From positions 1,486,692-1,550,691 of the forward strand of contig OZ251460.1 of assembly GCA_965242585.1 (NCBI GenBank): 64,000 bases of DNA, in the 5' to 3' direction. This DNA is from Limisphaerales bacterium (GTDB taxonomy: Bacteria > Verrucomicrobiota > Verrucomicrobiia > Limisphaerales > AAA164-E04). A program made the position numbers and the translations under genes. A model generated the notes under the pieces. It saw only the letters and a list, made by a program, of their open reading frames with translations. It was not told where the DNA came from and ran no database searches. Below, piece by piece: positions 5,601-60,289 of this stretch (positions are counted from its first letter, which is position 1; every line of letters begins with the position of its first letter).

Positions 5601-8177
5601 GTCTTCCGCCACGGTGGAAGGGCGTAAAAACTCGCCTTCCGAGTTGTGGACTTGCCCGAAGATCCGAATTCCCTTTTCTTGTAAAGTATCTTTTGAAGAG
5701 TTGAACGATGTAAAGTCAATGGTAGTAACTTGGGACTGCGTCAACTGAGCCACATCGTCCAGTGAACCGGAGCTTAGATCCACTATGGAGATGGAGCCAA
5801 GTGGATCGATAGTATACTCTTCTAAAGGTTCTCCTTCGTTAGCCGTCAAGAGTTTGGTGCCGTCCGGACTGAAGGTTATCATATTCGGCTGCACACCCAC
5901 TTGGACGCGGCTTAATTCCGTTCCGCTCTGCGCGTCTAGAAAAACTACAAATCCATTCTGGTCCCGAAATTTACTAAAAAAACCAACGGCAACTATGCCG
6001 TTGGCGGCAACTATGCCGTTGGCGGCAACTATGCCGTTGGCGGCAACTCCTAAATCGGAAATTAAAAATTCTAGAGACGGTGTCTCTGGGTTGCTGAGAT
6101 CTAAGACGAGAATCCCATCGATGGAAAGGGCGGTCACGAAGAGCCGTTTGGTGGACGGATCATAAGCGATGCCTTCATCAACGCCGCCGTCGGGCGAGTC
6201 CTTTCTGAATCTAGCGAACTTTCCTAGTTCGTTGAAGATGCGGACGCGTGGATTGGTCAAGTCATCGGACAAATGGACTTCTCCGTCCAGCGCATTTTGA
6301 ATGTATTCAGTGAGAACTTGCCGCTCTCCAATTTTGGGTTGTAGATTTATGCGCTCCGGATTTGATTTGGCGGCGCTAAAAGCGCGATAGCCGTCGCCTC
6401 CGGTGGCCAGAAATTCATTGGCGGCTAACACGAAGGTTTGGGAGAGATTTCCGACAACTTGGAAGTTTTCGATCAAGGGGACGAGCGTTCCATTCTCACG
6501 GCGGACGGTCAAATAGATGACGCGCGACGGAATATCCAAAGTCAAGGCGTCGGGAATTCCCGGACGGCGAGAATCAAACTCGAAATCCAAACCGGCGATT
6601 TGCGGAAAGGAGCCAGAGCGATGGGGAAAATGGGAAACGGCGTTTTCCACCGCTGCGAGCAATTCGTTTCCGCTCAATTCGATGATTTCCAAAGTGTTGT
6701 CAAAGGCTAAGGCCGACTCAATCGAGAACTTGGTGATGTTCGGGCCGGATATTGAATTGCGAATGCCGCCGCTGTTTTTTAGCGCAAGGTCCACGCTGAC
6801 TTCCCTTCCCTCTTGACGAACATATTGGCGAGCCCACCAAAGATACGAATCGGCGACTAAACGGCCTAAGTTGGTTTCCCGGCTTCGGACATGGTCTTCT
6901 GCGCCGTTTAGCGGCGAGGAAGTGGTGCCGACGATGGCGAACAAATCCTGGATTAACGGCGTTTTTGTGAGCGTCTCAAAAGTGGATCGCACTTCTTCCG
7001 GCGCTTGCAAGGTTGGCACCAGCAATTCCGCGCTCAAAGCCGCAACTGCTTCGGTGGTGCTGGCAACCGGCCCGCTGCGATCATCTATTTGAGCAATCAA
7101 GCCTTGGTCGTCAAAAGTCACTATCAAGTTGCCGACGTAGCGATAGTTTTGGCCGCTGTTGACAATGCAAACCGGATTCCCATCGGCATCGGCGCCCAAG
7201 ATTGGATAGTCGACCACGGGTTTGTCGTCGGGACGCAAAAGATTGAACGGGCCGTCGGGCTCGGCTTTCGCCATGAAGTCTGTGTTGCCGGCAAAGACGA
7301 TAATGTCGACGTCGCGCAATTCGCTGGCCGGAACGGGATCGCCGCTAAAGTCCAACGGATGGTCCAAAAGAATGATTTTGTTGATTCCCTGCGCTTTCAA
7401 AAGATCGACTTGCTCTAGAATTTGAGGAATCGCCGGCGCCAACGGCCGGTTGGTTTCCGGATGGCGTCCGCCAACAAAGTCCAGTCCGGGCAAGTTTGCT
7501 TCCGGGTCCAGCGTGATGTCAAAAAGGTCGCTCGGAGCGCGGCCAATCAAGCCGATGCGTTCTCCGTTCAGTTCCACCCAAGCGCTTTTGGCCACCTTGC
7601 CTTGGTTCGCTTCGACGCTGGCGGCGTCTTCTCCAATCTCAATGGCGGGAACGCCTTCGGAGAGACGGACTTTGGAGAAGTCCAAGTTTACCGCTAAAAA
7701 CGGATATTTGGCGAAGCGCAATCGGCGCGCAAAACCTTCAATCCAACCGTCAATGCTACCGTTAAACTCATGGTCGCCAATGCTGGTGGCCGTCAGTCCC
7801 GTGGCGTTGAAAAAGTGGATGTCGGCCAATCCCTGCAGGCCTAAGGAATCCACTTGGGCGGAGGCTTGATAAAAAGGCCCGGGCAAGGTTTGATCCCCGG
7901 CGGCCACATACAGAGAGGGAATGTTCTCCCGCTCCGCCAGCAGTTTCAAACCGTGAAGCACGGCGCCGTAGTGGAGAAGCTTCGGCTCCAAAGTGTTCGG
8001 ATCCTGAAAAGCAGATTCGTGATTCGAAGCATGCAAAACTTGCAGCGGAAAACCTTCGACAGGAGGAGTTTCCTGCGCAACGGCCGACCGCAAAAAGAGC
8101 GCCCCAACCGCGCCCGCAAGGAAGGTTAAAGTTTGTTTTTTATAGACTTCTCGCATAGATAGTAAGTTTCCATTCAT
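2619..8177 (-). CDS. Giant secreted phosphoesterase: two UshA-like metallophosphoesterase/5'-nucleotidase modules flanking a central beta-propeller, plus C-terminal F-V-R tail
   Basis: 1852 aa with signal peptide MREVYKKQTLTFLAGAVGALFLRSAVAQ. Module 1 has LQVLHASNHESAF...AAGDQTLPGPFY...IGDHEFN...LDHP...RSRETNLGRLVAD...LKNSGGIRNS...GGDGY. Module 2 repeats the same order: LQVLHSSDNESAF...TAGNHILPGPFY...SNHGFD...RTRETNLGQLATD...LNNSGGIRRS...GGDGY. The middle ~550 aa (GFDASDRDGAVNIKTWPVMGMYQPDA...GANEGAHRDGD...DFDGDGDIDQ) resembles phytase-like/choice-of-anchor-I propellers. Confidence 0.8.
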   Translation of the reverse strand: MNGNLLSMREVYKKQTLTFLAGAVGALFLRSAVAQETPPVEGFPLQVLHASNHESAFQDPNTLEPKLLHYGAVLHGLKLLAERENIPSLYVAAGDQTLPGPFYQASAQVDSLGLQGLADIHFFNATGLTATSIGDHEFNGSIDGWIEGFARRLRFAKYPFLAVNLDFSKVRLSEGVPAIEIGEDAASVEANQGKVAKSAWVELNGERIGLIGRAPSDLFDITLDPEANLPGLDFVGGRHPETNRPLAPAIPQILEQVDLLKAQGINKIILLDHPLDFSGDPVPASELRDVDIIVFAGNTDFMAKAEPDGPFNLLRPDDKPVVDYPILGADADGNPVCIVNSGQNYRYVGNLIVTFDDQGLIAQIDDRSGPVASTTEAVAALSAELLVPTLQAPEEVRSTFETLTKTPLIQDLFAIVGTTSSPLNGAEDHVRSRETNLGRLVADSYLWWARQYVRQEGREVSVDLALKNSGGIRNSISGPNITKFSIESALAFDNTLEIIELSGNELLAAVENAVSHFPHRSGSFPQIAGLDFEFDSRRPGIPDALTLDIPSRVIYLTVRRENGTLVPLIENFQVVGNLSQTFVLAANEFLATGGDGYRAFSAAKSNPERINLQPKIGERQVLTEYIQNALDGEVHLSDDLTNPRVRIFNELGKFARFRKDSPDGGVDEGIAYDPSTKRLFVTALSIDGILVLDLSNPETPSLEFLISDLGVAANGIVAANGIVAANGIVAVGFFSKFRDQNGFVVFLDAQSGTELSRVQVGVQPNMITFSPDGTKLLTANEGEPLEEYTIDPLGSISIVDLSSGSLDDVAQLTQSQVTTIDFTSFNSSKDTLQEKGIRIFGQVHNSEGEFLRPSTVAEDLEPEYIAVTPDNRLAYVTMQENNAAAILDLATMELKELFSLGFKDHSIEGQGFDASDRDGAVNIKTWPVMGMYQPDATAAYETLGRNYIVGANEGAHRDGDIGPSRVKHLTLDPASYPNAETLQADENLGRLQASPVTGDFDGDGDIDQIFSYGARSFSIWDEFGKIVFDSGDDFERITAEVLGENFNANDWDGSFDQRSDNKGPEPEALAIGKIDDRVYAFIGLERVGGIMMYDITSPHSAFFVQYLNTTDFSAEDISQAGDVSPDAITFIPADQSPSGKPLLAVAHEGSGTITVHTVRVVAPAEYKLQVLHSSDNESAFQNPNTLETTILNYGAVLNGLQGLAAKEGIPSIYLTAGNHILPGPFYEASVHAGFGAQGLADIAFYNAMGLTANGTSNHGFDGGINNFAHLLHAANYPFLAVNLDFSQVEVAEGVPAIAIGRDGAGVAENAGKVAKSAWVEAGGEKIGLIGRAPLDFFNWLEDSALPGLDFVGGRDPDTNLPLEDTMDLVLAQVALLESQGINKIILLDHAQDFASDPMSTENLRGIDIIVNAAASGFLARSGANGPFNLLRPGDAASADYPIMRTDGEGNPVVVVNSGPNYRYVGNLIVSFDEAGRVRAVDDRSGPVASTPEAMAALQTKLTGRIETPEVAATAEVREIFTALRNTDSIIEQFQRVGETTTELVATTAEVRTRETNLGQLATDSILWFARRYLESRGSELSVDIALNNSGGIRRSIQGPAITRLSINTALAFNNRLAIAELTAAEAIATFENAVSRYPAVDGRFLQAAGIFLEYDPSRPGVESASSLTTPSRVKNLTIFQADGTKDLVVANFEAQGDLQRTFGLVVNEFLIAGGDGYASLAAVNDDPNRAVLLTETTEPQILADYIVEVLDGFVNIPEPLVSPRIVRFEILEGRLLSASASAESVSFTFLLASGRKFALQTSPSVISSRWTAWNEGADFQISSEDNGDGSINLTVTLPNDGEQTFVRLLLLE
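5991..6044 (-). repeat. Perfect 18-bp x3 in-frame tandem repeat inside the phosphoesterase gene
   Basis: AACTATGCCGTTGGCGGC occurs three times without a mismatch (5991-6008, 6009-6026, 6027-6044), with partial copies on both sides. It encodes (AANGIV)3 on the minus strand. Confidence 0.95.
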
Positions 8178-32650: not shown

Positions 32651-32724
32651 CTCTGTTGCTATATTTTGTATTATCGTATTTCTAGTTTTGTCCAAAACGG
32701 CGCTACTTGGCCGTCGGACGAAAT

Positions 32725-33474
32725 TCATTCGGGGGGTTGGGCGATGTTGACGCCCTGTTCAATTTGTCGTTTGACTTCGGCGGCGTCAATGCTTTCCACA
32801 TGGCCGTCGACAAAAAGGTAGTTGGCGCGCCCTTGGCTTCGGTCTTCTTTGGGAGCGCCGGTTCGGTGGCGGTCGGGTTGAATGTCGCCGAGCACACTGT
32901 CCCATCCTCCCGATAGCCAAATCCGAGAATGAGTGTGATCCTCGCCCACGGTCGGAGCGTTGTCATCAGCGGTTTCAAACAGCAAAATGGTTTCGGTCGG
33001 TTGCTTTAACTGGTCCAACTTTGGCAAAGGCTCAATCAGCCGACCAAACGGATCCACGCGCGGCACGGACAAAAATTCATTCAATATGTAACTGGTGCCG
33101 CTCAATTGATGCCGCTTGTTGCGCTTGGGATCGGCGGGGCAAAGTCGAATCTTTTCCGAGTTGCCGACATACGGACGCAGTTGGTAAATCCACATTTTGT
33201 TTGTGATCTGGGTTTCGTGCCCGGTCATCGGCAGCAACCCTTCAAAGTCATCGGCATACATTCGGAAACCCAAGCCAATCTGCCGCAAGTTCGACACGCA
33301 CTTTATCCGTTTGGCTTGAGCGGACGCCTTGCTCAAGGCCGGCAAAAGCAACGAGGCCAAGATCACGATGATCACAATCACCACAAGCAGCTCAATTAAC
33401 GTAAAAGCGCGGACATTTTGGCGGTTCCCCGCCGATCCGGGCACTTCCCGGACGTAGTTCTGACAATTCATCAT
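32725..33474 (-). CDS. Prepilin-type N-terminal cleavage/methylation protein with H-X9-DG C-terminus (DUF1559 pseudopilin-like)
   Basis: The motif [29 protein letters not shown] is the class III signal. The C-terminus [15 protein letters not shown] matches the H-X9-DG motif. The start is assumed at MMNCQ (33474); the ORF opens at 33552. The stop overlaps the long form of the downstream ORF by 4 nt. Confidence 0.85.
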
Positions 33475-33575
33475 ACTTAGTTTTGGTTCAGTTAGCTTCT
33501 GTTCCCGACGGCATTTGCCAAAACAACGGGAAACTTTTTCCGCCGCCCGCAAAAGGCGCCGGAGACGAAGAATGC

Positions 33576-34079: not shown

Positions 34080-37000
34080 ATGATTGACAGCCAATCCGGA
34101 CTGAAACAGACTCCTCCGCAGATGAAAAGTTTACCTTTCAGCAAAAACAACCAAATGAAGCCCAAAAACCAGTTTTATCGATCCTTCGCTTGGGGACGGC
34201 GCGCCGCCTTCTCCTGCCTCCTCCTTGCCAGTCTTCCTGCCGCCAACGCCGCCACATTCACAGAGCGCAATCCCGCGCAGGACTTTGACGGACTGGAACT
34301 GAGACTCGCGGGAAATACTTCGCCTCAAGGCCTCTGGTCCAACGGCACCACGATGTGGGTGGCAGACGGCGCCGACGGCAAACTCTACGCCTACAAAATG
34401 AGCGACAAAACACGCGATGCCCTCAAAGACTTCAACACTTTGAGCGCCGCCGGAAATAATCTTCCCACCGGCCTGTGGTCTAACGGCACGACAATGTGGG
34501 TGACGGATTGGCAGGATGCTAAGATTTATGCCTACAAGATGAGCGACAAAAGCCGCGATCCCGCCAAAGATTTCGACACTTTGAGCGCCGCCGGAAATAT
34601 TCGCCCCACAGGAATCTGGTCCGACGGCGCCACGATGTGGGTCTCGGACACTGCGGACACAATCTACGCCTACAAAATGAGCGACAAGAGCCGCTCCCCC
34701 ACCAAAGACTTCAACATCCGAAGCCTTATTGGAAATCGATACATCCAAGACATCTGGTCTGACGGAACGACGCTGTGGGCGGCGGATTTTGCGGGGAGCC
34801 GCGGCGACGATAAACTCTACGCATTCGGCCTGCCGAAGCAAAACCGGGACGCCTCCAAAGACTTCAACACGCTGGAAGCCGCCGGAAATCATCAGCCTCG
34901 CGGCCTATGGTCGGACGGAACCACCATGTGGGTTGCAGACGCTAAGGATGACAAAATTTACGCCTACCATTTGTCAACACAAGAACCGTCGCGTTCCGAC
35001 AACAACAGACTGGCGTCTCTCCAACTGAGTGGAGTCGAGTGGCTTCCCGACTTTGACGGCCGCGCCGATTTTTTCAGAGCGGTAACCTTGGACTACGATG
35101 TTGCCCACGTCGGTGTTGTTGCAGTGGCTATTCACGAAGGCGCCTCAGTAGAAATTTCGCCGCCGGACGACGCTCCCAACACCCCCGGACATCATGTGGC
35201 TTTATCCGCCGGCGACAACACAACAATCACCATCACCGTTACCAGCGAAAACGGAAATGTGCGGGTCTATACCCTACTTGTTTCTCGGTCCACTTCGTGG
35301 CACAGAGATCTAGATTTTAATGCGCTGAATGCCGCCGGAAACAGCCAGCCTCGAGGCCTGTGGTCGGACGGAATTCACATGTGGGTGGCCGACGCTTCCG
35401 ACGCCAGAATATACGCCTACAAAACAGCCGACAAAACGCGCAATCCCGCCCAAGACTTCAATACACTAAGCGCCGCCGGAAATACCAGCCCCACGGGAAT
35501 CTGGTCAGACGGGACAACCATGTGGGTAGCGGACTGGCAGGATGACAAGCTTTACGCCTACAACATGTCCGACAAAAGCCACGATCCCGACAAAGACTTT
35601 GATACACTAAGCGCCGCCGGAAATACCAACCCCACGGGAATCTGGTCAGACGGGACAACCATGTGGGTGGCGGACACTGCGGACAGGATTTATGCCTACA
35701 ACATGTCCGACAAAAGCCGGAATCCATCCGAAGACTTTGACACATATAATACCATCGGAAATCGATACATTCAGGGAATCTGGTCGGACGGGACAACTAT
35801 GTGGGCGGCAGACTTTGCCGGCACAAACGGAATCAGCAAGATTTATGCTTTCAATCTGTTGAGCAAAAATCGAGACGTAGCCAAAGAATTCAACATGCTG
35901 TCGCCAGCGGGGAATAATCAACCCCGCGGTCTGTGGTCTGGCGGAGAGACGATGTGGGTAGTAGATTCTTCCTACGACAAGCTTTACGCTTACCACCTTT
36001 CAGACACGGCGGGCTTGAGTTCTTTAGAAGTCAGCAACGCCCAGTTGTCCCCTGCCTTTCACAAATCTAGCGTTGAATATTCGGCGGAAGTTGCCAATGC
36101 GATCACCAACGTTTCAATCACGGCAGTAGCGGACCGTTCGGAAGCCTCCGTTGCCATCTCGCCAACAGACGCCGATCCCAATACCGATGGACATCAAGTG
36201 GCCTTATCCGAAGGCGCGAACACTATTACAATCACTGTAACTCCGTCCAATACTAGAATCTCTGGTCGCACTTACACCTTGACGGTTCGTCGATCACCTT
36301 CCAGCGATAACACCTTAAGAAATTTAACTATGAGCAATGCCACACTCTCTCCTCCTACTTTTCGTAGCAGCACCACCTACTATACGGCTACCGTCGCTCA
36401 CAACGTCACCTCCACCACCATCACGGCCGAGGCCAACCACGCCAATGCCTCCGTTGTCATCTCACCTCAGGATGCGGACACAGAAACTGAAGGACATCAA
36501 GTTGACCTAACAAGAGGTATCAATGGAATTATCATCGCCGTCACCGCCGCAGACGGGAGCATACGGACCTATACTTTGGATGTTCTGGTTGAAGATGGAT
36601 CCTTTGATAACGCATTGAGAAGCCTGACTCTGAATAACGCAACTCTCTCCCCTGCCTTTCACGGCAACACGACCAACTATACGGCGAGCGTTGGGCAGGC
36701 TGGCGCTGTTACTACGGTGACGGCTCGGGCCAACCATTCTATGGCGAAGACGGTGATTTTGCCGGCGGACGTGGATAGGGAAACTGCCGGACATCAGGTC
36801 GCTCTAACCGAAGGCGATAACTCCATCTTTGTTGTCGTCATTGCGCCGAACGGCAACCCCCGTGCCTATACTATTAGAGTACGCCGAACATTTTCCGGGG
36901 ACGCTTCGTTAAAATCTCTGCAATTGAGCGGGGTAACCATGAGTTCCCAATTTAGCACTGGCACCACGAGCTACAGAGGAAACGTCGCACGAACCACTGC

Positions 37001-37553
37001 CTCGACTACGGTAACCGCCCAAACGAGTCATTCTATGGCGCGGACGGTGATTTTGCCGGCGGACGCGGATAGGGAAACTGCCGGACATCAAGTCGCTCTG
37101 ATCGACGGCATTAACCCCATCACTATTGCCGTCATTGCTCCGGACGGAACTTCCCGAATCTACACTGTGTCTGTGACTCGGACGCCGCAATCTGTTTTAG
37201 AAAATGGCTTGATTGGCCGCCTGAGCCTGAACGATCGTGCAGACAGTGCGCGACTTTTACTTCCATCGACATTATCCATAAGGGCAAGAACTTCGGAAAG
37301 CCGTTTGTCAGCGGTGGAGGCTTCTTCAGAGGGGATTCGCTTTGTTTTTCTCGTAGCGGATTCTATCATGAATGATGAGTTCACGGTGGAGGCTCGTTCG
37401 AGTTTGACAACGGGCCAATGGCAAGTTTTACGCGAGGGAGTGGACTGCACAGTGGTGCGAGAAAAAGACGAGAGAAAGATGGCACGGGTGACGGTGATCT
37501 TGCCGAGTGCCGGGGAGGATCAGATGTTTCTTCGCTTGATACCAAAGCATTAG
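34080..37553 (+). CDS. Large secreted repeat protein: 2 x (five 47-aa WSDG-TMWVAD-KIYAY repeats) + 5 cadherin-like beta-sandwich domains + C-terminal F-L-R tail
   Basis: The signal peptide is ...RRAAFSCLLLASLPAANA, with likely start at Met 34122 or 34155. There are ten repeats of the form KDFNTLSAAGNxxPxGLWSDGTTMWVADxxDxKIYAYKMSDKSRDPA. The intervening domains match the cadherin-like beta-sandwich pattern (LSSLEVSNAQLSPAF...Y...V...ITA...ASV.ISP.DAD...GHQVAL.EG.N.I.I.VT...YT..V.R). The tail is IRFVFLVADS...ARVTVILPSAGEDQMFLRLIPKH. Confidence 0.8.
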   Translation: MIDSQSGLKQTPPQMKSLPFSKNNQMKPKNQFYRSFAWGRRAAFSCLLLASLPAANAATFTERNPAQDFDGLELRLAGNTSPQGLWSNGTTMWVADGADGKLYAYKMSDKTRDALKDFNTLSAAGNNLPTGLWSNGTTMWVTDWQDAKIYAYKMSDKSRDPAKDFDTLSAAGNIRPTGIWSDGATMWVSDTADTIYAYKMSDKSRSPTKDFNIRSLIGNRYIQDIWSDGTTLWAADFAGSRGDDKLYAFGLPKQNRDASKDFNTLEAAGNHQPRGLWSDGTTMWVADAKDDKIYAYHLSTQEPSRSDNNRLASLQLSGVEWLPDFDGRADFFRAVTLDYDVAHVGVVAVAIHEGASVEISPPDDAPNTPGHHVALSAGDNTTITITVTSENGNVRVYTLLVSRSTSWHRDLDFNALNAAGNSQPRGLWSDGIHMWVADASDARIYAYKTADKTRNPAQDFNTLSAAGNTSPTGIWSDGTTMWVADWQDDKLYAYNMSDKSHDPDKDFDTLSAAGNTNPTGIWSDGTTMWVADTADRIYAYNMSDKSRNPSEDFDTYNTIGNRYIQGIWSDGTTMWAADFAGTNGISKIYAFNLLSKNRDVAKEFNMLSPAGNNQPRGLWSGGETMWVVDSSYDKLYAYHLSDTAGLSSLEVSNAQLSPAFHKSSVEYSAEVANAITNVSITAVADRSEASVAISPTDADPNTDGHQVALSEGANTITITVTPSNTRISGRTYTLTVRRSPSSDNTLRNLTMSNATLSPPTFRSSTTYYTATVAHNVTSTTITAEANHANASVVISPQDADTETEGHQVDLTRGINGIIIAVTAADGSIRTYTLDVLVEDGSFDNALRSLTLNNATLSPAFHGNTTNYTASVGQAGAVTTVTARANHSMAKTVILPADVDRETAGHQVALTEGDNSIFVVVIAPNGNPRAYTIRVRRTFSGDASLKSLQLSGVTMSSQFSTGTTSYRGNVARTTASTTVTAQTSHSMARTVILPADADRETAGHQVALIDGINPITIAVIAPDGTSRIYTVSVTRTPQSVLENGLIGRLSLNDRADSARLLLPSTLSIRARTSESRLSAVEASSEGIRFVFLVADSIMNDEFTVEARSSLTTGQWQVLREGVDCTVVREKDERKMARVTVILPSAGEDQMFLRLIPKH

Positions 37554-51937: not shown

Positions 51938-54900
51938 TTAGCGTTGCGGCATCAATCGAAGAAATCGTTGTTTGCCTTCTGTCCGCGGCAAAATCACCGT
52001 CAAGCGAGCTCTGCCGTCTTCGTTAGCTTCCCGAATCACTTGGACTTTATCATCCGTCAAAAGCCTCCACTCTCCACCAAGCAAATTGAAACTTTCCTCG
52101 ATTCCAAACTCTTCCGCTGAAACAACAAACACAAAGCGAACCACACTCTCAGATAACGTCTCGGCAGAAATCAACCGACTCCACTCACCGCCGGAAAAAG
52201 AACTTGCCAAAGCCGAACGATTGTCGCCAACCGCCAATGGACGGAAGCTCTGCGACGGGATTTGGCTTTGTCCTGAAGTGCCTTCCGAAGACTGAGCCGC
52301 CGCCTCTCGCGTGATAAAAACCGTGTAAGTCCGCGTACTCCCGTCCTCAGCAGTGACGTCAACGGTAATGATATTGCGCCCTTCTTTTAAAGAAACTCGA
52401 CGGTCGCCGCCGGAACCTCCGCCACCCACAGCGTTGCTGCCCGCTGGCGAGATGTTCACAGTAGACTCAGAATGACTGGGGGTAGCCGTAATGGTTGTCG
52501 AAGTGACGGTGTGAGCCACAGTAGCCGTATAAATCGGATTGTGGGAAGAAAAAACAGGATTCAATCTCACTCCGCTGAGCGCCATGGTGTTTAACCCAGG
52601 ATCACCAGAGGGTGAATTCGTAGACGATCGCGGAAGAATGTAGGCATATAGATTATTGTTATTAAATTTATTATCCACTACCCACATCGTTCCCCCATCC
52701 GACCAAATGCCATGAGGATTAAGATTTCCCGCGGACTTCAGTGTGTCAAAATCTTTGTTTGGGGCACGGCAACCAAAATCCTGTTTTGTATTGCCTAGAT
52801 TGTAAGCATAGATTTTATCATCATCAGAATCCGTCACCCACATCGTCATGCCGTTTGACCAGATTCCCGTGGGTTTGTTGTTTCCCGCAGCCTCTAGTGT
52901 GGTAAAGTCTTTTCCAGAATCTCGGCTCTTGTCCGCCATTTTATAGGCGTAAATCTTGGCATCCGCCGTGTCCACCACCCACATCGTCGCGCCGTCCGAC
53001 CAAATAGCCGCAGGAGTGCTATTGTTTGTATCTAGAGTGTTAAATTCTTTGCCACGGACGCGGCTTTTGGCAATCAAGTTGGTATCACCCAGGTTGTAGG
53101 CGTAAATCCTGCGATCATCAAGGTCCGCCACCCACATCGTCGTGCCATTTGACCAGATTCCCGTGGGTCTGTCATTTCCCGCAGCCTTTAGTGTCTTGAA
53201 ATCCTTGCCAGGGACGCGGCTTTTGGCAACTAAGTTCGTATCACTTAGGTTGTAGGCTCGAATTTCAGATTTGAACCAATCTGCCACCCACATCGTCGTG
53301 CCATCCGACCAAAGATCGTAAGGCAAGCCAATGTCTCCAGAGATGTCAAAATCTTTCTCCGGGATTCGTGACGTAGCTCCTCTGCGAGTGACTGTTACGG
53401 TGTAAGTTCGAGGGCTGCAATTCGGAGCTATGGCAGTTATCGTAATGGTGTTACTGCCTATAGCCAAAGCTACTTGATGGCCGGCTGTGTTGGCGTCTGT
53501 ATCCGCCGGCAAAATAAGAATATCCGCATCAGCATGGTTCGCCCTTGCGGTTACTGTAGCAGAACTAGTTGTATGGTTCACAGTGGCCGTATAGTTGCTA
53601 ACGCTGCTGGAAAAATTAGTAATGTTGCCGGAAACAACGCCGCTCATCGACAAAGATCTCAACGAAGCGTCGCTAGAAAAAGCCCGATTGACTGTCACCG
53701 TGTAAATCCGGCCGATCCTGTTTGGAGCGGTGACAGAAAAGGTAATTGTGTTGGCGCCTTCTTCAAGTCTCACCGCATGGCTGTCGATATTCGGCAACGC
53801 GTCCGGCGGCGAGATAATCACAGTAGACTCGGAATAGCTCGGCAGGGCGTTATTAACGACAACGGTGTCATAGCCGTGGACAACGTCGACTGTGTAGTGG
53901 GTGACGACAGGATCAAAATCAGGAAATAACACAATGGTTTTTCTGTTTAGCCCGGAGGAAAGGCTAACTTTATCCAAATCCAGTTCCCTTAGCGATGACG
54001 CACCGGCAAACAGCCGATTATAGGCATACAATTTGTTGTCCATAGAGTCCACGATCCACATTGCGGCGCCATCTGACCATAATCCCCGAGGCGATCCATT
54101 TCCCGCCGCCTGCAAAGTGTTGAAGTCTTTGCCCGATTCTCGCCTCCCATTCGCCAGATTGTAAGCGTATAACTTCGCATCTTCCTTGTCTGCTACCCAT
54201 AAGGTTTTTCCGTCTGACCACATGCCTTCTGGATCGTTGTTCTCCATCGCTAAACCAAATTCCTTTGCAATGTTCCGTATCTTGTCCGCCATGTTGTAGG
54301 CATAAACTCTGTTTGTCATTGCCCCGTCGTCTGCTACCCACATCGTCTCCCCGTTCGACCAAATCCCCCGGGGTGCCGTGTTTGTCGACGCCAAAGTGAA
54401 GTCGTTGGTGGAAACATGACTCTTGCTTGATAGATTGTAGGCGTAGATCTTGTCGTCTCCATTGTCCGAAACCCACATCGTTTGACCATCCGACCACAGG
54501 CCGCGCGGCTGTTCGTTCCCAACTGCCTTTAAAGTGTTAAAGTCCGAACTAGAAGCAAGCCTTCTGCCGTCCGCCAAGTTGTAGGCGTAAAGTTTGTCAT
54601 CCTCGTTGTCCGCTACCCATATAGTCTCTCCATTCGACCATATCCCACGAGGTGCCGTGTTTGTCGACACTAAATCAAAGTCTTGAAGCGGGTTCCAGCC
54701 GGTCATGCCAATCGAAGCCCGGCGAATGGTGAGGATATAGTCTTTGGTGTCGCCGTTGGAGGCGGTAACCGTGACGGTAATGATGTTATTGCCTTCGGCT
54801 AGAACTACCTGATGGCCGACCGTGTTGGCGTCCGCGTCCGGCGGCGAGAGGGCAAGAGTTGCGGCCGGGTGTCTGGCCGATGCGGTGACAGTGGTTGCAG

Positions 54901-57900
54901 CGACGGCGTGATCAACGTTGGCCGTATAACGAGTGCCGATGGGAAGAAAGGCAGGCCATAATGCAGCGTCGCTAACAGAGAGGCTTTGCAAGTTGTTGTC
55001 CCCGGAGCGCGGCGTTCGAGTGACCGCGATGACATAGTTTTTGGCGCTCCCGTTTTCAGCAGTCACGATGATGGTAATGGGGTTGACGCCCTCGGCTAAG
55101 GCTACTTGATGACCGGCGATGGCGCTGTCGGCATCGGCCGGCAAAATGGACACTGAAGCTTGGGCATGGTTGGCTATGGCAGTGACCGTGGTCACAGCGG
55201 TGGTTGTGGCAACGGTGGCCGTGTAGCGGGTTGTGCTGCCAGAAAAAGTGCCAAAGTTAAGGACAGAGGTTAAATTCAAAGTCTTCAATGTGTTGTCGCC
55301 CGATGGCGCCGGCGGCTGCTGATAGGCGTAGATCTTGTCGTCCCACGGATCCGACACCCACATGGTCGTCCCATCGGACCATAAACCGCGAGAATGCTCG
55401 TTGCCAGCAGCGACCAAGGTGTCAAAGTCCTTCGCCGGCTCGCGCTGCTTGCTCGCCACATTGTAGGCGTATATTTTCGCATCTTCCCGATCTGAAACCC
55501 ACATCGTTGTGCCGTCCGACCAGATACGGTTCGGAGTAGTATTCCCTGCGGCGATCAGTGTATTGAAATCTTTGACAGGATCACGGCTCTTGTCAGCCAT
55601 CTTATACGCGTAAATCTTGGCGTCTTCTACGTCCACCACCCACATGGTCGTCCCATCCGACCAGAGGTCGGGAGAATAAGAATTTCCGGCGGCGATTAGG
55701 TTATTGAAGTCTTTGCTTGGATCGCGGCTCTTGTCGGCCATCTTGTAAGCGTAAATCTTGTCATCTTCCCAATCGGCCACCCACATGGTTGTGCCATCCG
55801 ACCAGAGGCCTACAGGAGTAGAATTTCCGGCGGCGATTAGGTTATTGAAGTCTTTACTTGGATCGCGGGTTTTATCGGACAACTTGTACGCGTAAATCTT
55901 GCTATTCCGGGCTTCTGCTACCCAGAGGGTCGTCCCGTTCGACCACATGCTTTGCGGCGAGGTGTTTGTCCTATCCAGCGTATTGAAGTCCTGCGCTGGG
56001 TTGCGCGAGGTGACGAAGGTTCCTCTGCGAACGGCGATGGTGTAAGTGCGGGCAAGGCCGCTTGACGGAGTAACGGTGATAGCAATATCGTTGGTACCTA
56101 CCGCTAAGGCCACTTGATGCCCTTGACTTGCGCTGTCGGCATCCGAAGGCGCTATCGACACCACAGCGTTGGTGTGCCGAGCCGCCGCCGCAATCGTGAG
56201 GTTGGTGATGGCGTAAGAAACGGAAACCGTATATCGAGCAATAGCGCCATCAAATCCGGGCGTCAACTCGGCGCCGTCACTGAGCGTCAAACTGCTCAAT
56301 ACCGCGTCGTTGGATAAATGATAGGCGTAAACTTGAGCGTCCGTATAGTCCGCCACCCACATGGTCGTCCCATCCGACCATAAACCGTGAGGAGCCATAT
56401 TCCCCGCCGCTTCCAAAGTGTCAAAGTCTTTGGCCGGATCGCGGCTCTTATCGCTCATTTTGTAAGCATAAATCTTGTTTTGCCAAGGGTCCGACATCCA
56501 CATGGTCGTTCCATCCGACCAGAGACCATTAGGTCCGTAACTCTCTCCTGTACCGACCAGCGTATTGAAGTCTTTGGCCGGATCGCGGCTTTTATCGCTC
56601 ATTTTGTAAGCGTAAAGCTTGTCATCTTCCCAATCGGCCACCCACATGGTTGTGCCATTCGACCATAAGCCGTGCGGATTTCCATTCCCAGCCGCCCGCA
56701 GGGTATTGAAGTCTTTGGCCGGATCGCGGCTTTTATCGCCCATTTTGTAAGCGTAAAGCTTGTCATCTAAAGCGTCCGTCACCCACATGGTCGTGCCATC
56801 GGACCAAAGATCGCGAGGAGAATTATTCCCGGCAACACTCAGAGTGTCAAAGTCCTCGGCAGGATTGCGATTCTTGGTGGCCAAATTGTAAGCGTAAATC
56901 TTGTTGTTTGCCGCGACGTTGTTCACGGCATCTGTCACCCAGATAGTTTTGCCATCGGACCAAATACCCTGAGGGTGGTTATTCCCGGCAGCGATTAGGG
57001 TGTTGAAGTCCTGCGCCGGATTGCGGAAGGTGAACTGATTGGTGACGGCAACGGTATAGACACGGGCAGTACCTCTGGACGATGTAACGGTGATTGTAAT
57101 AGTGGTTTCGGCGCCGTTCGCCAAAACTACCTGATGCCCGGCGGTTGCGGCGGCGGCATCTGTCGGCGAAATGACAATAGAAGCGTCGGATTGAAACGCC
57201 ATCGCCATCACCGTCGTTTGGATGTCTGAACCAAAAACGGTTCCCGTATATCGAGCGGTGCCGCCGTCAAAAGCAGGATTCAAACTCAATCCGCTCAAAC
57301 TCAAAGAACTCAAAGTCGCTGCATCGGACAAGCGATAAGCGTATATCTTATCCCTGTCGCCATATGGATCCGATACCCACATCGTCGTCCCGTCCGACCA
57401 AATGCCACGAGGATAGTCATTTCCGGCGGCATCCAGTGTATTGAAGTCTTTGCCCGGATCACGTTGTTTGCTAGCCAAATTGTAAGCGTAAAGTTTGTCA
57501 TCCCAATAGTCTCCCACCCACAGCGTCGTGCCGTCCGACCACATGCGGATGGGTGCAATATTTCCCGCATCAATTAAGCTATTGAAGTCTTTAGTAGGAT
57601 CTCGTTGTTTGGTAGTCAAATTGTAAGCGTAAATCTTGCCGTCCGCAGAGTCTGCCACCCACATGGTTGTGCTGTCCGACCAGAGGCCGCTAGGGGAAGT
57701 ATTTCCAACGGCGATCAAGCTATTGAAGTCTTTAGTAGGATCACGTTGCTTGGTAATCAAGTTGTACGCGTAAATCTTGGCGTCTTGTCCATTCTCCACC
57801 CACATGGTTGTGCCATCGGACCAGAGGCCGCGGGGAGAAGTATTTCCGGCGGCGATCAAGCTATTGAAGTCTTTAGTAGGATCTCGTTGCTTGGTAACCA

Positions 57901-60289
57901 AGTTGTACGCGTAAAGTTTGTCATCCACACTGTCTCCTACCCACATTGTCGTGCCGTCTGACCAAAGACTGTGAGGATATCTGTTCCCCGCGGCAATTAG
58001 TGTGTCAAAATCCTGCGCTGGGTTGCGCGAGGTGAGGAACGCTCCTCTGGTCACGGCAATGGCATAAGTGCGGGCAAGGCCGCTGGCAGGCGTAACCGTG
58101 ATGGTGATGTCGTTGACGCCAACCGCCAAGGACGCCTGATGGCCAGCCGTGTTTGTGTCAGCGTCCGTCGGCAAAATGGACACCGTCGCATTGGTGTGAA
58201 TCGCCGTCGCCAAAACCGTGAGGTTGGTGACAGCGTAAGGAGCGGAGGCTGTATACCGAGCGATGCCTCCGTCAAAACTAGGCGTTAGATCGATGTTATC
58301 GCTCAAACTCAAGTTGCTCAATACAGCGGCGTTGGACAAATGATAGGCGTAAAGTTTATTGCCTCCAGAATCTGAACTATAACTTAGCCTGTCGATTCCA
58401 TCATCTGCCACCCACATCGTTGTGCCATCCGACCATAGCCCTCGAATCGCCACGTTTCCGGCAATGCTCAAGGTGTCAAAATCTTTGGCAGAGTCACGGC
58501 TTTTATCGCTCATCTTGTAAGCGTAAATCTTATTGTCCTCATTGTCCGTTACCCACATCGTTGTGCCATCCGACCATATGCCTCCCCAAGGCGCCGTGTT
58601 TCCAGCAGCTCTCAAGGCGTTAAAGTCTTTAGCAGAATCCCGGCGCTTGTTCGACATCCGGTAGGCATAAATCTTGGCGTCCCAATAGTCTGCCACCCAC
58701 ATGGTGACGCCGTCTGACCAAAGACCCACAGGATTGACGTTTCCGTTGACTCTCATGTCGACAAAGTCCTTAGTAGGATCGCGGCTTTTATCACTTATCT
58801 TATAGGCATAAATCTTGTCATCTCCATCATCTACCACCCACATGGTGATGCCGTCTGACCACAAGCCACGGGGTCCTCCGTTTCCAGCTGCGCTTAGGGT
58901 ATTGAAGTCCTTGTCGGGACTGCGAGTTTTAGTTGCCAAGTCGTAGGCGTAAAGTTTGTCCTTCTTAGCATCCGCTACCCACATGGTCTCGCCGTCTGAC
59001 CACAGACTGCGGGGAGCAGTATTTCCCACGGCATCCAAAGTGTCTATATCTTGCATTGCATTGCGCACGGAGAACTGGTTGGTGACGGCAACAATGTAAG
59101 CGCGATCCTGTCCGCTGGACGGAGTAACGGTGATATTGATGTAGGTTTCCGCCCCGTTGGCCAAAACCACCTGATGCCCTGCTGTCGCCGTATCTGCATC
59201 CGCCGGCAAAACGGACACTGACGCAGTAGACTGAGCCGCCGTGGCCACCACCGTCGTTTGGGCGCCCGATTGAATAATGCTGGCCGTGTATTGAACGGTA
59301 CCGCTATCAAAAGCGGGACTCAAACTCAACCCGCTCAAACTCAAAGAACTCAAAGCCCCCGCATCTGACAAGCGATAGGCGTATATCTTGTCGTCCTGCG
59401 AATCCCCCACCCACATGGTCCTCCCATCCGACCAAAGGGCCCGAGGTTGATTGTTTCCCGCCGCGCTCAATGTGTCAAAATCCTTGCTCGCATCCCGAGT
59501 CCGCGCCGACAGATTGAGCGCGTATATCTTGTTGTTTGCGTTGTTGTCCGAGCCCGCATAATCCGCCGCCCACAGCGTCGTCCCATCCGACCAGATGCCT
59601 TGAATGTAGCGATTCCCAATGAGGCTGTTGGTGTCGATCTCTTTGGCAGTGTCCCGGCTCTTGTCGCTCATCTTGTAAGCGTAAATCCTGTCCGCCGTGT
59701 CGGCCACCCACATGGTTGCGCCATCCGACCAGATTCCCGTTGGATTGGTGTTGCCAGCGGCCTTCAAGGTGTCAAAGTCTTTGGCGGAATCGCGGCTTTT
59801 GTCGCTCATCTTGTAAGCGTAAATCTTGTCGTCAATCCATTCGGCCACCCACATGGTTGTGCCGTCCGACCAGATGCCCATTGGATTGGTGTTGCCGGCG
59901 GCTTTCAAGGTGTCAAAGTCTTTGGCGGGATCGCGGCTTTTCGTGGCTAAGTCATAAGCGTAGAGTTTGGGGTTCGACCATCCATTATTTACTACCCACA
60001 GGGTTTGTCCGTCAGACCAAAGGCCTTGCGGCCAAGGAATCCCATCGGCATTCAGATTGTCAAAGTCCTGCGCCGGATTGCGGGCGGCGAAGGTTGTTTG
60101 AGCGGTTGCGGTTGGGATGGAAAGGATTAAAAGGGCGAGCGGAATTCCGAGAGTCCTTCCCCGGAGCGCGGCGCAGGAGGCGCGAAGGGGATGCAAAAGG
60201 GAAAAGAGAACGTCGTTTTTCTCCCGAGCGATTTTGCGCGGTCGGTTTTTGGTCGGCTTGTTCGTCTCACAAATTAAATATGTCTTCAT
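51938..60289 (-). CDS. Giant (2783 aa) secreted repeat protein: 7 x (five 47-aa WSDG-TMWVAD-KIYAY repeats) alternating with 9 cadherin-like beta-sandwich domains, plus C-terminal F-L-R tail
   Basis: Uninterrupted 8.35-kb ORF with signal peptide LGIPLALLILSIPTATA. I counted 35 copies of the W-S-[DN]-G-x-T-[MLI]-W core, in seven groups of five. Each group is followed by one or two domains of the L.SL.LS...L.P.F...Y...V...V.A...A.V.I.P.DAD...GHQV.L..G.N.I.I.VT...Y...V.R type. The tail VVRFVFVVSAEE...ARLTVILPRTEGKQRFLRLMPQR parallels that of 34080-37553. Confidence 0.85.
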   Translation of the reverse strand: MKTYLICETNKPTKNRPRKIAREKNDVLFSLLHPLRASCAALRGRTLGIPLALLILSIPTATAQTTFAARNPAQDFDNLNADGIPWPQGLWSDGQTLWVVNNGWSNPKLYAYDLATKSRDPAKDFDTLKAAGNTNPMGIWSDGTTMWVAEWIDDKIYAYKMSDKSRDSAKDFDTLKAAGNTNPTGIWSDGATMWVADTADRIYAYKMSDKSRDTAKEIDTNSLIGNRYIQGIWSDGTTLWAADYAGSDNNANNKIYALNLSARTRDASKDFDTLSAAGNNQPRALWSDGRTMWVGDSQDDKIYAYRLSDAGALSSLSLSGLSLSPAFDSGTVQYTASIIQSGAQTTVVATAAQSTASVSVLPADADTATAGHQVVLANGAETYINITVTPSSGQDRAYIVAVTNQFSVRNAMQDIDTLDAVGNTAPRSLWSDGETMWVADAKKDKLYAYDLATKTRSPDKDFNTLSAAGNGGPRGLWSDGITMWVVDDGDDKIYAYKISDKSRDPTKDFVDMRVNGNVNPVGLWSDGVTMWVADYWDAKIYAYRMSNKRRDSAKDFNALRAAGNTAPWGGIWSDGTTMWVTDNEDNKIYAYKMSDKSRDSAKDFDTLSIAGNVAIRGLWSDGTTMWVADDGIDRLSYSSDSGGNKLYAYHLSNAAVLSNLSLSDNIDLTPSFDGGIARYTASAPYAVTNLTVLATAIHTNATVSILPTDADTNTAGHQASLAVGVNDITITVTPASGLARTYAIAVTRGAFLTSRNPAQDFDTLIAAGNRYPHSLWSDGTTMWVGDSVDDKLYAYNLVTKQRDPTKDFNSLIAAGNTSPRGLWSDGTTMWVENGQDAKIYAYNLITKQRDPTKDFNSLIAVGNTSPSGLWSDSTTMWVADSADGKIYAYNLTTKQRDPTKDFNSLIDAGNIAPIRMWSDGTTLWVGDYWDDKLYAYNLASKQRDPGKDFNTLDAAGNDYPRGIWSDGTTMWVSDPYGDRDKIYAYRLSDAATLSSLSLSGLSLNPAFDGGTARYTGTVFGSDIQTTVMAMAFQSDASIVISPTDAAAATAGHQVVLANGAETTITITVTSSRGTARVYTVAVTNQFTFRNPAQDFNTLIAAGNNHPQGIWSDGKTIWVTDAVNNVAANNKIYAYNLATKNRNPAEDFDTLSVAGNNSPRDLWSDGTTMWVTDALDDKLYAYKMGDKSRDPAKDFNTLRAAGNGNPHGLWSNGTTMWVADWEDDKLYAYKMSDKSRDPAKDFNTLVGTGESYGPNGLWSDGTTMWMSDPWQNKIYAYKMSDKSRDPAKDFDTLEAAGNMAPHGLWSDGTTMWVADYTDAQVYAYHLSNDAVLSSLTLSDGAELTPGFDGAIARYTVSVSYAITNLTIAAAARHTNAVVSIAPSDADSASQGHQVALAVGTNDIAITVTPSSGLARTYTIAVRRGTFVTSRNPAQDFNTLDRTNTSPQSMWSNGTTLWVAEARNSKIYAYKLSDKTRDPSKDFNNLIAAGNSTPVGLWSDGTTMWVADWEDDKIYAYKMADKSRDPSKDFNNLIAAGNSYSPDLWSDGTTMWVVDVEDAKIYAYKMADKSRDPVKDFNTLIAAGNTTPNRIWSDGTTMWVSDREDAKIYAYNVASKQREPAKDFDTLVAAGNEHSRGLWSDGTTMWVSDPWDDKIYAYQQPPAPSGDNTLKTLNLTSVLNFGTFSGSTTRYTATVATTTAVTTVTAIANHAQASVSILPADADSAIAGHQVALAEGVNPITIIVTAENGSAKNYVIAVTRTPRSGDNNLQSLSVSDAALWPAFLPIGTRYTANVDHAVAATTVTASARHPAATLALSPPDADANTVGHQVVLAEGNNIITVTVTASNGDTKDYILTIRRASIGMTGWNPLQDFDLVSTNTAPRGIWSNGETIWVADNEDDKLYAYNLADGRRLASSSDFNTLKAVGNEQPRGLWSDGQTMWVSDNGDDKIYAYNLSSKSHVSTNDFTLASTNTAPRGIWSNGETMWVADDGAMTNRVYAYNMADKIRNIAKEFGLAMENNDPEGMWSDGKTLWVADKEDAKLYAYNLANGRRESGKDFNTLQAAGNGSPRGLWSDGAAMWIVDSMDNKLYAYNRLFAGASSLRELDLDKVSLSSGLNRKTIVLFPDFDPVVTHYTVDVVHGYDTVVVNNALPSYSESTVIISPPDALPNIDSHAVRLEEGANTITFSVTAPNRIGRIYTVTVNRAFSSDASLRSLSMSGVVSGNITNFSSSVSNYTATVNHTTSSATVTARANHADADILILPADTDANTAGHQVALAIGSNTITITAIAPNCSPRTYTVTVTRRGATSRIPEKDFDISGDIGLPYDLWSDGTTMWVADWFKSEIRAYNLSDTNLVAKSRVPGKDFKTLKAAGNDRPTGIWSNGTTMWVADLDDRRIYAYNLGDTNLIAKSRVRGKEFNTLDTNNSTPAAIWSDGATMWVVDTADAKIYAYKMADKSRDSGKDFTTLEAAGNNKPTGIWSNGMTMWVTDSDDDKIYAYNLGNTKQDFGCRAPNKDFDTLKSAGNLNPHGIWSDGGTMWVVDNKFNNNNLYAYILPRSSTNSPSGDPGLNTMALSGVRLNPVFSSHNPIYTATVAHTVTSTTITATPSHSESTVNISPAGSNAVGGGGSGGDRRVSLKEGRNIITVDVTAEDGSTRTYTVFITREAAAQSSEGTSGQSQIPSQSFRPLAVGDNRSALASSFSGGEWSRLISAETLSESVVRFVFVVSAEEFGIEESFNLLGGEWRLLTDDKVQVIREANEDGRARLTVILPRTEGKQRFLRLMPQR

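Follow-up and report, generated by a model that had tools for sequence, protein, structure and literature searches.

A Limisphaerales gene encoding 35 propeller blades in seven modules of five, a candidate multivalent surface binding protein

The gene described here occupies positions 51938-60289 on the minus strand of a 64,000-nucleotide stretch of DNA from a Limisphaerales bacterium (contig OZ251460.1), which is called the window in the following. It encodes a protein of 2783 amino acids (aa) built largely from a 47-aa repeat, and groups of five repeats are predicted to form beta-propellers. On balance the protein is probably a multivalent surface binding protein (adhesin), with seven constrained propellers presented on a stalk. 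We infer that it is secreted and anchored to the surface, where it is probably retained.

According to the list of open reading frames (ORFs) and the translation, the ORF starts with ATG and runs for 2783 aa. The anchor motif W[SM][DN][GS] occurs 35 times in it, in seven groups of five, with a spacing of 45-53 aa (mostly 47) within a group and of 144-256 aa between groups. A hidden Markov model (HMM) was built from these 35 units and applied to the six-frame translation of the 64-kb window; it recovered exactly 35 units in the gene, ten in a paralogue at 34080-37553 and no blade unit anywhere else in the window. Tandem Repeats Finder reported period-141 arrays in both genes. The computed consensus of the repeat is RxPxKDFxTLxAAGNxxPxGLWSDGTTMWVxDxxDxKIYAYxxxxKx. 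The modules are separated by cadherin-like domains: Pfam detected PF12733 in nine stretches of the protein (293.7 bits against a cut-off of 24.2, E 3.8e-89), so that the spacers, and only these, belong to that family. An HMM that we built from the single-copy gaps places 1, 1, 1, 1, 2, 2 and 1 spacers after modules 1 to 7.

These results agree with a preliminary description of the sequence in its count of 35 repeats in seven fives within 2783 aa, in the repeat consensus, which had been drawn up by eye, and in the one or two cadherin-like spacers placed after every module. Its estimate that the two genes take up almost a fifth of the window was likewise correct ((8352+3474)/64000 = 18.5%), and the variation in module number that it anticipated is seen among relatives, which have four modules vs seven here. 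It had overstated the likeness of neighbouring 141-nt units around 57600-57960, which it called nearly identical: the DNA of units 12 and 13 is 83% identical there and that of units 13 and 14 79%, the best pair in the whole gene (units 22 and 23) reaches 85%, against a median of 54%. No exact direct repeat in the coding sequence is longer than 41 nt. An exact-sequence look-up found no identical copy of the protein on record in the contig collection. The parts of the gene and the related genes of the window are as follows.

51938..60289, minus strand: whole gene, stop codon included, for the 2783-aa multi-propeller protein, putatively secreted (ORF list and translation)
60101..60151, minus strand: putative signal-peptide-like hydrophobic segment LGIPLALLILSIPTATA, ahead of Q-TTF and the first propeller (read from the sequence)
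59357..60091, minus strand: propeller module 1, units 1-5 (closest to module 1 of relative L001, 80%)
59075..59356, minus strand: cadherin-like spacer 1 (Pfam PF12733, spacer HMM)
58358..59074, minus strand: propeller module 2, units 6-10 (anchor grouping, comparison with relatives)
58043..58324, minus strand: cadherin-like spacer 2 (Pfam PF12733, spacer HMM)
57323..58036, minus strand: propeller module 3, units 11-15, which holds the 79-83% identical neighbours (anchor grouping)
57035..57316, minus strand: cadherin-like spacer 3 (Pfam PF12733, spacer HMM)
56303..57034, minus strand: propeller module 4, units 16-20 (83% identity to module 2 of relative L002)
56021..56302, minus strand: cadherin-like spacer 4 (Pfam PF12733, spacer HMM)
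55304..56017, minus strand: propeller module 5, units 21-25 (module used for the AlphaFold2 model)
54716..55291, minus strand: cadherin-like spacers 5 and 6 (Pfam PF12733, spacer HMM)
54002..54712, minus strand: propeller module 6, units 26-30 (anchor grouping)
53381..53974, minus strand: cadherin-like spacers 7 and 8 (Pfam PF12733, spacer HMM)
52628..53383, minus strand: propeller module 7, units 31-35, the most divergent module (without close counterpart in relatives)
52304..52597, minus strand: cadherin-like spacer 9 (Pfam PF12733, spacer HMM)
51941..52180, minus strand: C-terminal beta-sandwich tail of ~80 aa, ending in ...GKQRFLRLMPQR, candidate envelope-anchor or sorting domain (common to three ORFs of the window)
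34080..37553, plus strand: paralogue of 1157 aa with two modules (10 units), five cadherin-like domains and the same tail
2619..8177, minus strand: unrelated exoprotein of 1852 aa with a 5'-nucleotidase C-terminal domain, a choice-of-anchor I domain and the same tail

The seven modules of the window were aligned with 33 homologues (alignment A1), and module 5 was modelled with AlphaFold2. The model is a five-bladed beta-propeller with a mean predicted local distance difference test score (pLDDT) of 93.3 and a predicted template-modelling score (pTM) of 0.90. This bears out the earlier suggestion that the grouping in fives reflects a five-bladed propeller, five being the rule across the family as well. 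DSSP assigned five times three full strands, lying on xGLWS, TMWVAD and KIYAYK, and in each blade an irregular element at R-D-P-x-K-D-F, made of two bridge residues around a short turn. Each module starts with this irregular element (the conserved RNPAQDF) and stops directly after the fifth KIYAY strand. The N-terminal RNPAQDF segment would thereby supply the missing outer element of blade five, and in the model the ring is probably closed in this velcro fashion. Foldseek comparison of the model with the PDB gave the best E-values, ~1e-10 to 1e-8, for WD40, NHL, YncE, Lp49 and Cj1041c propellers. The best whole-domain superpositions were with five-bladed glutaminyl cyclases at 10-13% identity, with template-modelling (TM) scores of 0.70 both ways for 3mbr, 0.69/0.65 for 2iwa and 0.63/0.64 for 3nol. 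The tachylectin-2 fold, to which the preliminary description had tentatively linked the repeat, was not among the top 50 Foldseek matches in the PDB.

Sequence searches of the PDB, by phmmer with one module and with a profile of 40 modules at E<=10, also returned nothing significant and no tachylectin-2. The best match was an SMP-30 protein (E 0.011); matches to Sm D1, lysozyme and cadherin-3 were judged to be noise. We found no dedicated Pfam or NCBIfam model for the 47-aa repeat. The whole protein scores 58.5 bits to Lactonase (PF10282, cut-off 21.7) and 37.2 bits to SGL (PF08450, cut-off 26.3), and it passes these cut-offs because the scores of 35 blades add up. Single modules reach 19-29 bits to SGL and 15-23 bits to Lactonase, the latter listed for four of the seven modules only, and show weaker matches to Arylesterase (PF01731) and TEN_NHL (PF25021; 11-20 bits vs a cut-off of 27.1). 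None of the seven modules matched NHL (PF01436) or the glutaminyl cyclase family PF05096 at E<=10, and the likeness to glutaminyl cyclases is thus structural only. From NCBIfam only 6-phosphogluconolactonase was returned, with 66 bits vs a cut-off of 370. With 45.8 bits, module 6 (54002-54712) exceeded the cut-off of 27 for PF22729 (NACHT C-terminal helical domain 3). We regard this identity as spurious: the match covers only model positions ~35-60, the segment is predicted to form beta strands, and no NACHT domain was found by Pfam. In precomputed annotation the PF22729 tag is carried by most family members and is likely a source of wrong annotation for the family.

A link to phage proteins emerged from structure comparison. 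In a viral structure library, predicted phage proteins superpose on the module with TM scores on the query (TMq) of 0.79-0.82, root-mean-square deviations (rmsd) of 2.6-3.7 A and 18-22% identity; these are the closest structures overall, far closer than those of the PDB, and one of them is named 'baseplate wedge subunit'. The protein gp51 of Lentibacter phage vB_LenP_ICBM2 (AYP28110.1) superposes with TMq 0.82 and rmsd 2.6 A. When one module was compared by tblastn with 50,697 phage records, only ICBM2 was found, in two records of one genome (E 2e-5, 23% identity, 95% of the module covered). The gp51 gene is located between genes named 'tail assembly chaperone' and beside one named 'tail protein'. 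Genes for tail fibres or receptor-binding proteins usually lie in such a setting, and the position of gp51 would suggest such a role. The gp51 family comprises at least 7,822 proteins, many on phage-sized contigs; their JGI names are 'YncE-like DNA-binding beta-propeller' or 'sugar lactone lactonase YvrE', and they score to SGL and Lactonase. In hhalign the module family and the gp51 family align over 235 columns with 99.3% probability (E 6.7e-21), a score that internal repetition can inflate. Since its own blades score to SGL and Lactonase and this alignment ties it to a phage-associated family that does so too, the repeat appears to be a distinct, uncurated branch of the SGL/Lactonase/YncE-type blade superfamily, packed as five blades. 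The earlier view that the repeat is undescribed thus stands as far as a dedicated Pfam or NCBIfam model is concerned, and falls with its scores to SGL and Lactonase and the hhalign match.

The close form of the module is another matter. A scan of viral contigs in IMG/VR found no close relatives of the window module, and carriage of this form by phages is therefore unsupported; PHROGs gave only weak matches, to families of unknown function. The window is not a phage tail module: the genes nearby are ordinary chromosomal ones (HisG, M29 peptidase, LptD, class II ribonucleotide reductase, ThiC and UvrC). From the distant kinship with phage tail proteins it follows that the module most likely binds something on a surface, and the link is a hint that it recognises surface polymers.

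The ratio of nonsynonymous to synonymous substitutions (dN/dS) was calculated from Nei-Gojobori counts for the paralogue and its two orthologues. Values of 0.11-0.14 were obtained for the propellers, of 0.33-0.46 for the cadherin-like region and of 0.45-0.54 for the C-terminal tail. Constraint is strongest in the propellers, the spacers evolve in the manner expected of spacers, and the purifying selection seen in the paralogue supports real coding sequence for the propeller family. The repeat positions that vary most are N-xx-P-x-G and D-xx-D, in the D-A and B-C loops, which by convention form the top face of a propeller.

Export and attachment would depend on the two ends of the protein. Segments equivalent to the leader LGIPLALLILSIPTATA are found in the paralogue and in the positional orthologue L066; either the ATG at 60289 or the TTG at codon 32 could be the true start of the protein. 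A C-terminal stretch of ~80 aa is common to the 2783-aa protein, the paralogue and the unrelated 1852-aa ORF at 2619-8177, and the same tail ends the proteins of the relatives L001, L002 and L066. It is lineage-specific, with only seven short database relatives, and matches nothing in Pfam or NCBIfam. A six-strand beta sandwich is predicted for it (pLDDT ~88 over residues 31-110), and the PDB offers no significant counterpart to this model, only generic Ig-like structures at E >= 4.6e-3. Choice-of-anchor domains, as their family naming indicates, sit upstream of varied C-terminal sorting signals, and a sorting or anchoring role of the tail fits the choice-of-anchor I domain in the 1852-aa ORF. 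Our guess from these sequences is that the tail may be a lineage-specific sorting or anchor domain.

The module is widespread. One module retrieved 949 proteins from a word-indexed database, among which a form of ~377 aa is frequent that combines a signal peptide and one module with a Cys-rich C-terminal domain; in others the module is fused to RHS/YD, vWA, LRR, FN3 or cadherin domains, and it is thus portable. An exhaustive profile search gave 8,650 cluster representatives (50% identity) at E<=1e-3 and 2,489 at E<=1e-30, and multi-module giants of up to 6,437 aa are common. Of 674 runs in 270 family proteins, 387 consist of exactly five units, the dominant length, with runs of 10, 15, 20 and 25 where modules abut, and for this reason we consider five units the rule of the family. 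In a set of species-representative genomes, at least 558 stretches encode relatives of the module. The best 77 of these loci are all in metagenome-assembled genomes (MAGs), labelled as Limisphaerales, Latescibacterota, Dehalococcoidia / SAR202, Vicinamibacterales, Flavobacteriaceae 'AqS4', Acidimicrobiales (including Ca. Poriferisodalis, Ca. Poriferisocius and Ca. Aldehydirespirator), Gemmatimonadota (RHO1_bin, RHO3_bin), Spirochaetales / Salinispira, Ca. Spongiisociaceae and a Nitrosopumilaceae archaeon. At phylum level the labels are Verrucomicrobiota, Latescibacterota, Chloroflexota, Actinomycetota, Gemmatimonadota, Acidobacteriota, Bacteroidota and Spirochaetota, together with the Nitrosopumilaceae. 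Many of these names point to sponge symbionts, and the Limisphaerales source bacterium is itself most likely sponge-associated.

Two members of the family are of interest in their own right. The archaeal locus (L011, 2782-6444) is in a Nitrosopumilaceae MAG, in a record of 2.5 Mb titled 'chromosome: 1', and encodes a 1220-aa protein with a hydrophobic N-terminal leader and one module that is ~60% identical to bacterial ones. Its neighbours are an aIF6-like ORF and a transposase-like ORF, and judging by the translations the locus is apparently GC-rich. The archaeal copy is consistent with transfer between domains of life. On a 6-Mb contig, a single-module member (L079, 5165-8886) is flanked by two FGE-sulfatase (formylglycine-generating enzyme family) genes and by a sigma-54 activator with Reg_prop/Y_Y_Y sensor domains.

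Comparison with close relatives gave a composite picture of the gene. The positional orthologue in L066 has the same leader, tail (...GKQRFLRLTPQR) and neighbour and contains only 20 units, arranged as 10+5+5; the M29 peptidase gene that flanks the 2783-aa ORF is 87% identical in DNA to L066. Other paralogues in related genomes (L001, L002) have four modules each. The leader and the tail find their best matches in L066, and modules 1 to 6 with their spacers in non-syntenic paralogues of a related genome. Modules 2 and 4 are both closest to module 2 of the relatives (62% and 83%), and modules 3 and 5 are both closest to the equivalent module of L002/L003b (71% and 72-76%). The alignments thus portray the gene as a mosaic whose modules were apparently gained by block duplication or by recombination between paralogues, and they suggest that blocks of modules were exchanged between paralogues. 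The gain of modules is not a recent event, given that the duplicates share no more than 62-65% identity at the protein level. A four-module member in L003 (818-6180; OZ241891.1, Limisphaerales) is split into two overlapping ORFs of ten units each, by a frameshift or as a pseudogene.

Might the length of the ORF be an assembly artefact of expanded or collapsed repeats? The gene is highly repetitive, and its relatives have four modules and not seven. Against this, its units are at most 85% identical and its exact repeats at most 41 nt long, the duplicate modules differ in protein to the extent just given, the frame is intact over 8.3 kb, and relatives with several modules and a length of 1,800-6,400 aa are common, some of them in records titled chromosome-level MAG assemblies. 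Because of the low DNA identity, the intact frame and the abundance of multi-module relatives, we regard an artefact as extremely improbable.

For the function, we propose the following. The signal-peptide-like leader would direct export of a protein with seven propellers, each composed of five 47-aa blades of the SGL/Lactonase/YncE/NHL type, and the nine cadherin-like beta-sandwich domains would form a stalk that spaces the propellers. The C-terminal beta sandwich of ~80 aa, which is also present in other large exoproteins of the genome, would mediate sorting or attachment to the envelope. The propellers would be the working parts, binding ligand through the loops AAGN-xx-P-x-G and D-xx-D-x-K on the top face. 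Putative ligands are most likely parts of the extracellular matrix or the cell surface of the sponge, or polysaccharides of other microbes.

Three other functions were weighed against this proposal. A multivalent lectin of the tachylectin-2 kind would have one sugar site per blade, 35 in all, and would bind host or algal glycans. The five blades and the 47-aa period fit, every blade retains the residues W,S,D,G,T,W,D,Y,Y,R,D,K,D,F, as is typical of lectins with one site per blade, and the phage relatives are placed where receptor-binding proteins sit. However, 1TL2 is absent from both the PDB profile search (E<=10) and the top 50 Foldseek matches, and the motif is of the SGL/YncE/NHL type. Membership in the tachylectin-2 family is therefore unsupported and we think the explanation unlikely, while a lectin-like mode with one site per blade is plausible as a sub-case of multivalent binding. 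An array of enzymes, in which each propeller would be a metal-dependent hydrolase or cyclase of the SGL, lactonase or glutaminyl-cyclase kind, exposed at the surface to process host or environmental compounds, is suggested by the only curated families matched (SGL, Lactonase, Arylesterase and, with 66 bits, 6-phosphogluconolactonase) and by the glutaminyl cyclases as best whole-domain PDB matches. The scores of single modules are, however, at or below the cut-off (in NCBIfam 66 vs 370), the matches span the generic blade scaffold, and the glutaminyl cyclases are only 10-13% identical and leave PF05096 unmatched. Moreover, the five blades are near-copies of each other; in single-site propeller enzymes each blade contributes residues of its own. 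An arrangement of seven tandem copies along a stalk, and the fusions to RHS, LRR, FN3 and cadherin domains, fit binding better, and an enzymatic role, which we consider improbable, is less likely than multivalent binding.

The protein might also be an effector or shield directed at eukaryotes, which, either shed or exposed, would interfere with recognition and phagocytosis by sponge cells, as has been proposed for ankyrin-repeat proteins of sponge symbionts, and would not serve attachment. The family is concentrated in MAGs with names of sponge symbionts from many phyla, and the literature relates repeat proteins of such symbionts to interaction with the host (PMC8163846). The present searches, however, identified no eukaryotic homologues, and the build of stalk and tail resembles a cell-bound adhesin, so that this function has little probability in our view.

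The multivalent binding protein remains the explanation that we prefer, and a number of points weigh against it. The related propeller families, including SGL, lactonases and glutaminyl cyclase, are enzymes. No positive selection was found at the variable loop positions between orthologues (dN/dS 0.11-0.35), and diversifying recognition of ligands is thus unsupported. Ligand, binding pocket and localisation are proposals that we infer, and both the velcro closure and the assignment of the top face follow from the DSSP order and general propeller rules. The anchor role of the tail is a guess, because the tail has seven relatives only and no significant structural match. The sponge association is deduced from record titles and MAG names.

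Enrichment and lateral transfer of cell-adhesion and repeat proteins have been reported for sponge symbionts (PMC8163846). Surveys of these organisms use fixed Pfam lists, which contain PF12733 and nothing able to detect the propeller described here (PMC11706023), and the propeller family has therefore gone uncounted in them. Sponge genome notes describe HiFi-based circularised MAGs from such projects; one note that confirms this does not list the accessions found here. A literature search found no published description of the repeat and nothing relevant on five-bladed propellers or SMP-30 enrichment in sponge symbionts, on Limisphaerales in sponges or on 'Poriferisodalis'. A broader and tentative proposal, to which we give clearly less than an even chance, is that this 'WSDG' propeller is an unrecognised symbiosis module for recognition of host or matrix. 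It would have spread laterally over at least nine phylum-level lineages of sponge symbionts, including ammonia-oxidising archaea, would share ancestry with phage receptor-binding propellers and would have been missed by the Pfam-based surveys of 'eukaryote-like' proteins. If this were true, the bacterium studied here would have amplified its binding surface to 45 blades in two genes. The attachment of diverse microbes to sponges, and their tolerance by the host, is currently studied through fixed lists of Pfam repeats (PMC11706023). A family with 8,650 clusters at 50% identity and proteins of up to ~6,400 aa, which recurs in MAGs labelled as various bacterial phyla and in an archaeon, is invisible to these lists. 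With an HMM for the family, its enrichment in host-associated vs free-living genomes could be tested directly, and a single module has a size (240 aa) suited to binding screens and crystallography. If the family is common in free-living lineages too, it would be one more uncatalogued branch of a familiar propeller superfamily.

Over 5.8 kb across the paralogue, the DNA of the window shares 87-88% identity with two Limisphaerales MAG chromosomes (L004 and L005). Downstream of the large gene, also on the minus strand, a Calx-beta ORF (50747-51409) and an ORF with a GLUG motif (49881-50783) share 37 nt, read in different frames; the two (49881-51409) may represent one frameshifted surface-protein gene. 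At 25969-27750 (minus strand) the window encodes a GmrSD-type restriction endonuclease with N- and C-terminal domains. A 24-nt tandem repeat at 31682-31913 (9.7 copies, 97% matches) encodes an array of the octapeptide DGHDHEGE, which by its composition looks like a metal-binding segment rich in His, Asp and Glu. The array is part of a 768-aa ORF (30422-32728, minus strand) without Pfam match, which adjoins a pseudopilin-like ORF of the DUF1559/N-methyl type (32725-33552); such DUF1559/N-methyl proteins are typical of the Planctomycetes-Verrucomicrobia-Chlamydiae (PVC) group.

Among known systems, the families SGL, Lactonase, Arylesterase and TEN_NHL, as well as YncE, the NHL propellers of TRIM2/3 and Brat, and Lp49, have the blade motif P.G.....dG.lyvaD....kIy.y in common with the repeat. 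SGL/Lactonase/NHL-type domains have six or seven blades that differ from each other, and many are enzymes or binders of RNA, DNA or protein; the module of the window, like those across its family, has five blades, and here these are nearly identical. Glutaminyl cyclases of the plant and bacterial type (3mbr, 2iwa, 3nol) agree with the module in number and size of blades, whereas they are single-site enzymes with non-repetitive blades and only 10-13% identity. Tachylectin-2 (1TL2), a five-bladed lectin with 47-residue repeats, is alike in blade number, repeat length and strong internal repetition, whereas its blade motif is of another type and its sequence has no detectable similarity. The gp51 family shares with the module the blade core P.G..(S/K)DGT.M(W/Y)V....D.(I/V)Y.Y.L; at an identity of ~15-23% its blades are longer, with a STAWD.STASY insert, and these phage proteins are single-domain, 400-650 aa long and without a cadherin-like stalk.

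In overall build, the protein resembles giant bacterial surface adhesins with beta-sandwich stalks, long secreted proteins that combine Ig-like or cadherin-like spacers with binding modules; RTX, type I secretion system (T1SS) and LPXTG features were not seen in the 2783-aa protein. It differs from them, and from the 'eukaryote-like' cadherin and FN3 proteins of sponge symbionts, in that its binding module is a propeller outside the Pfam lists of the surveys and its tail is lineage-specific. With the latter proteins it has in common the presumed ecological setting and evidence of lateral spread across symbiont phyla (PMC8163846, PMC11706023).

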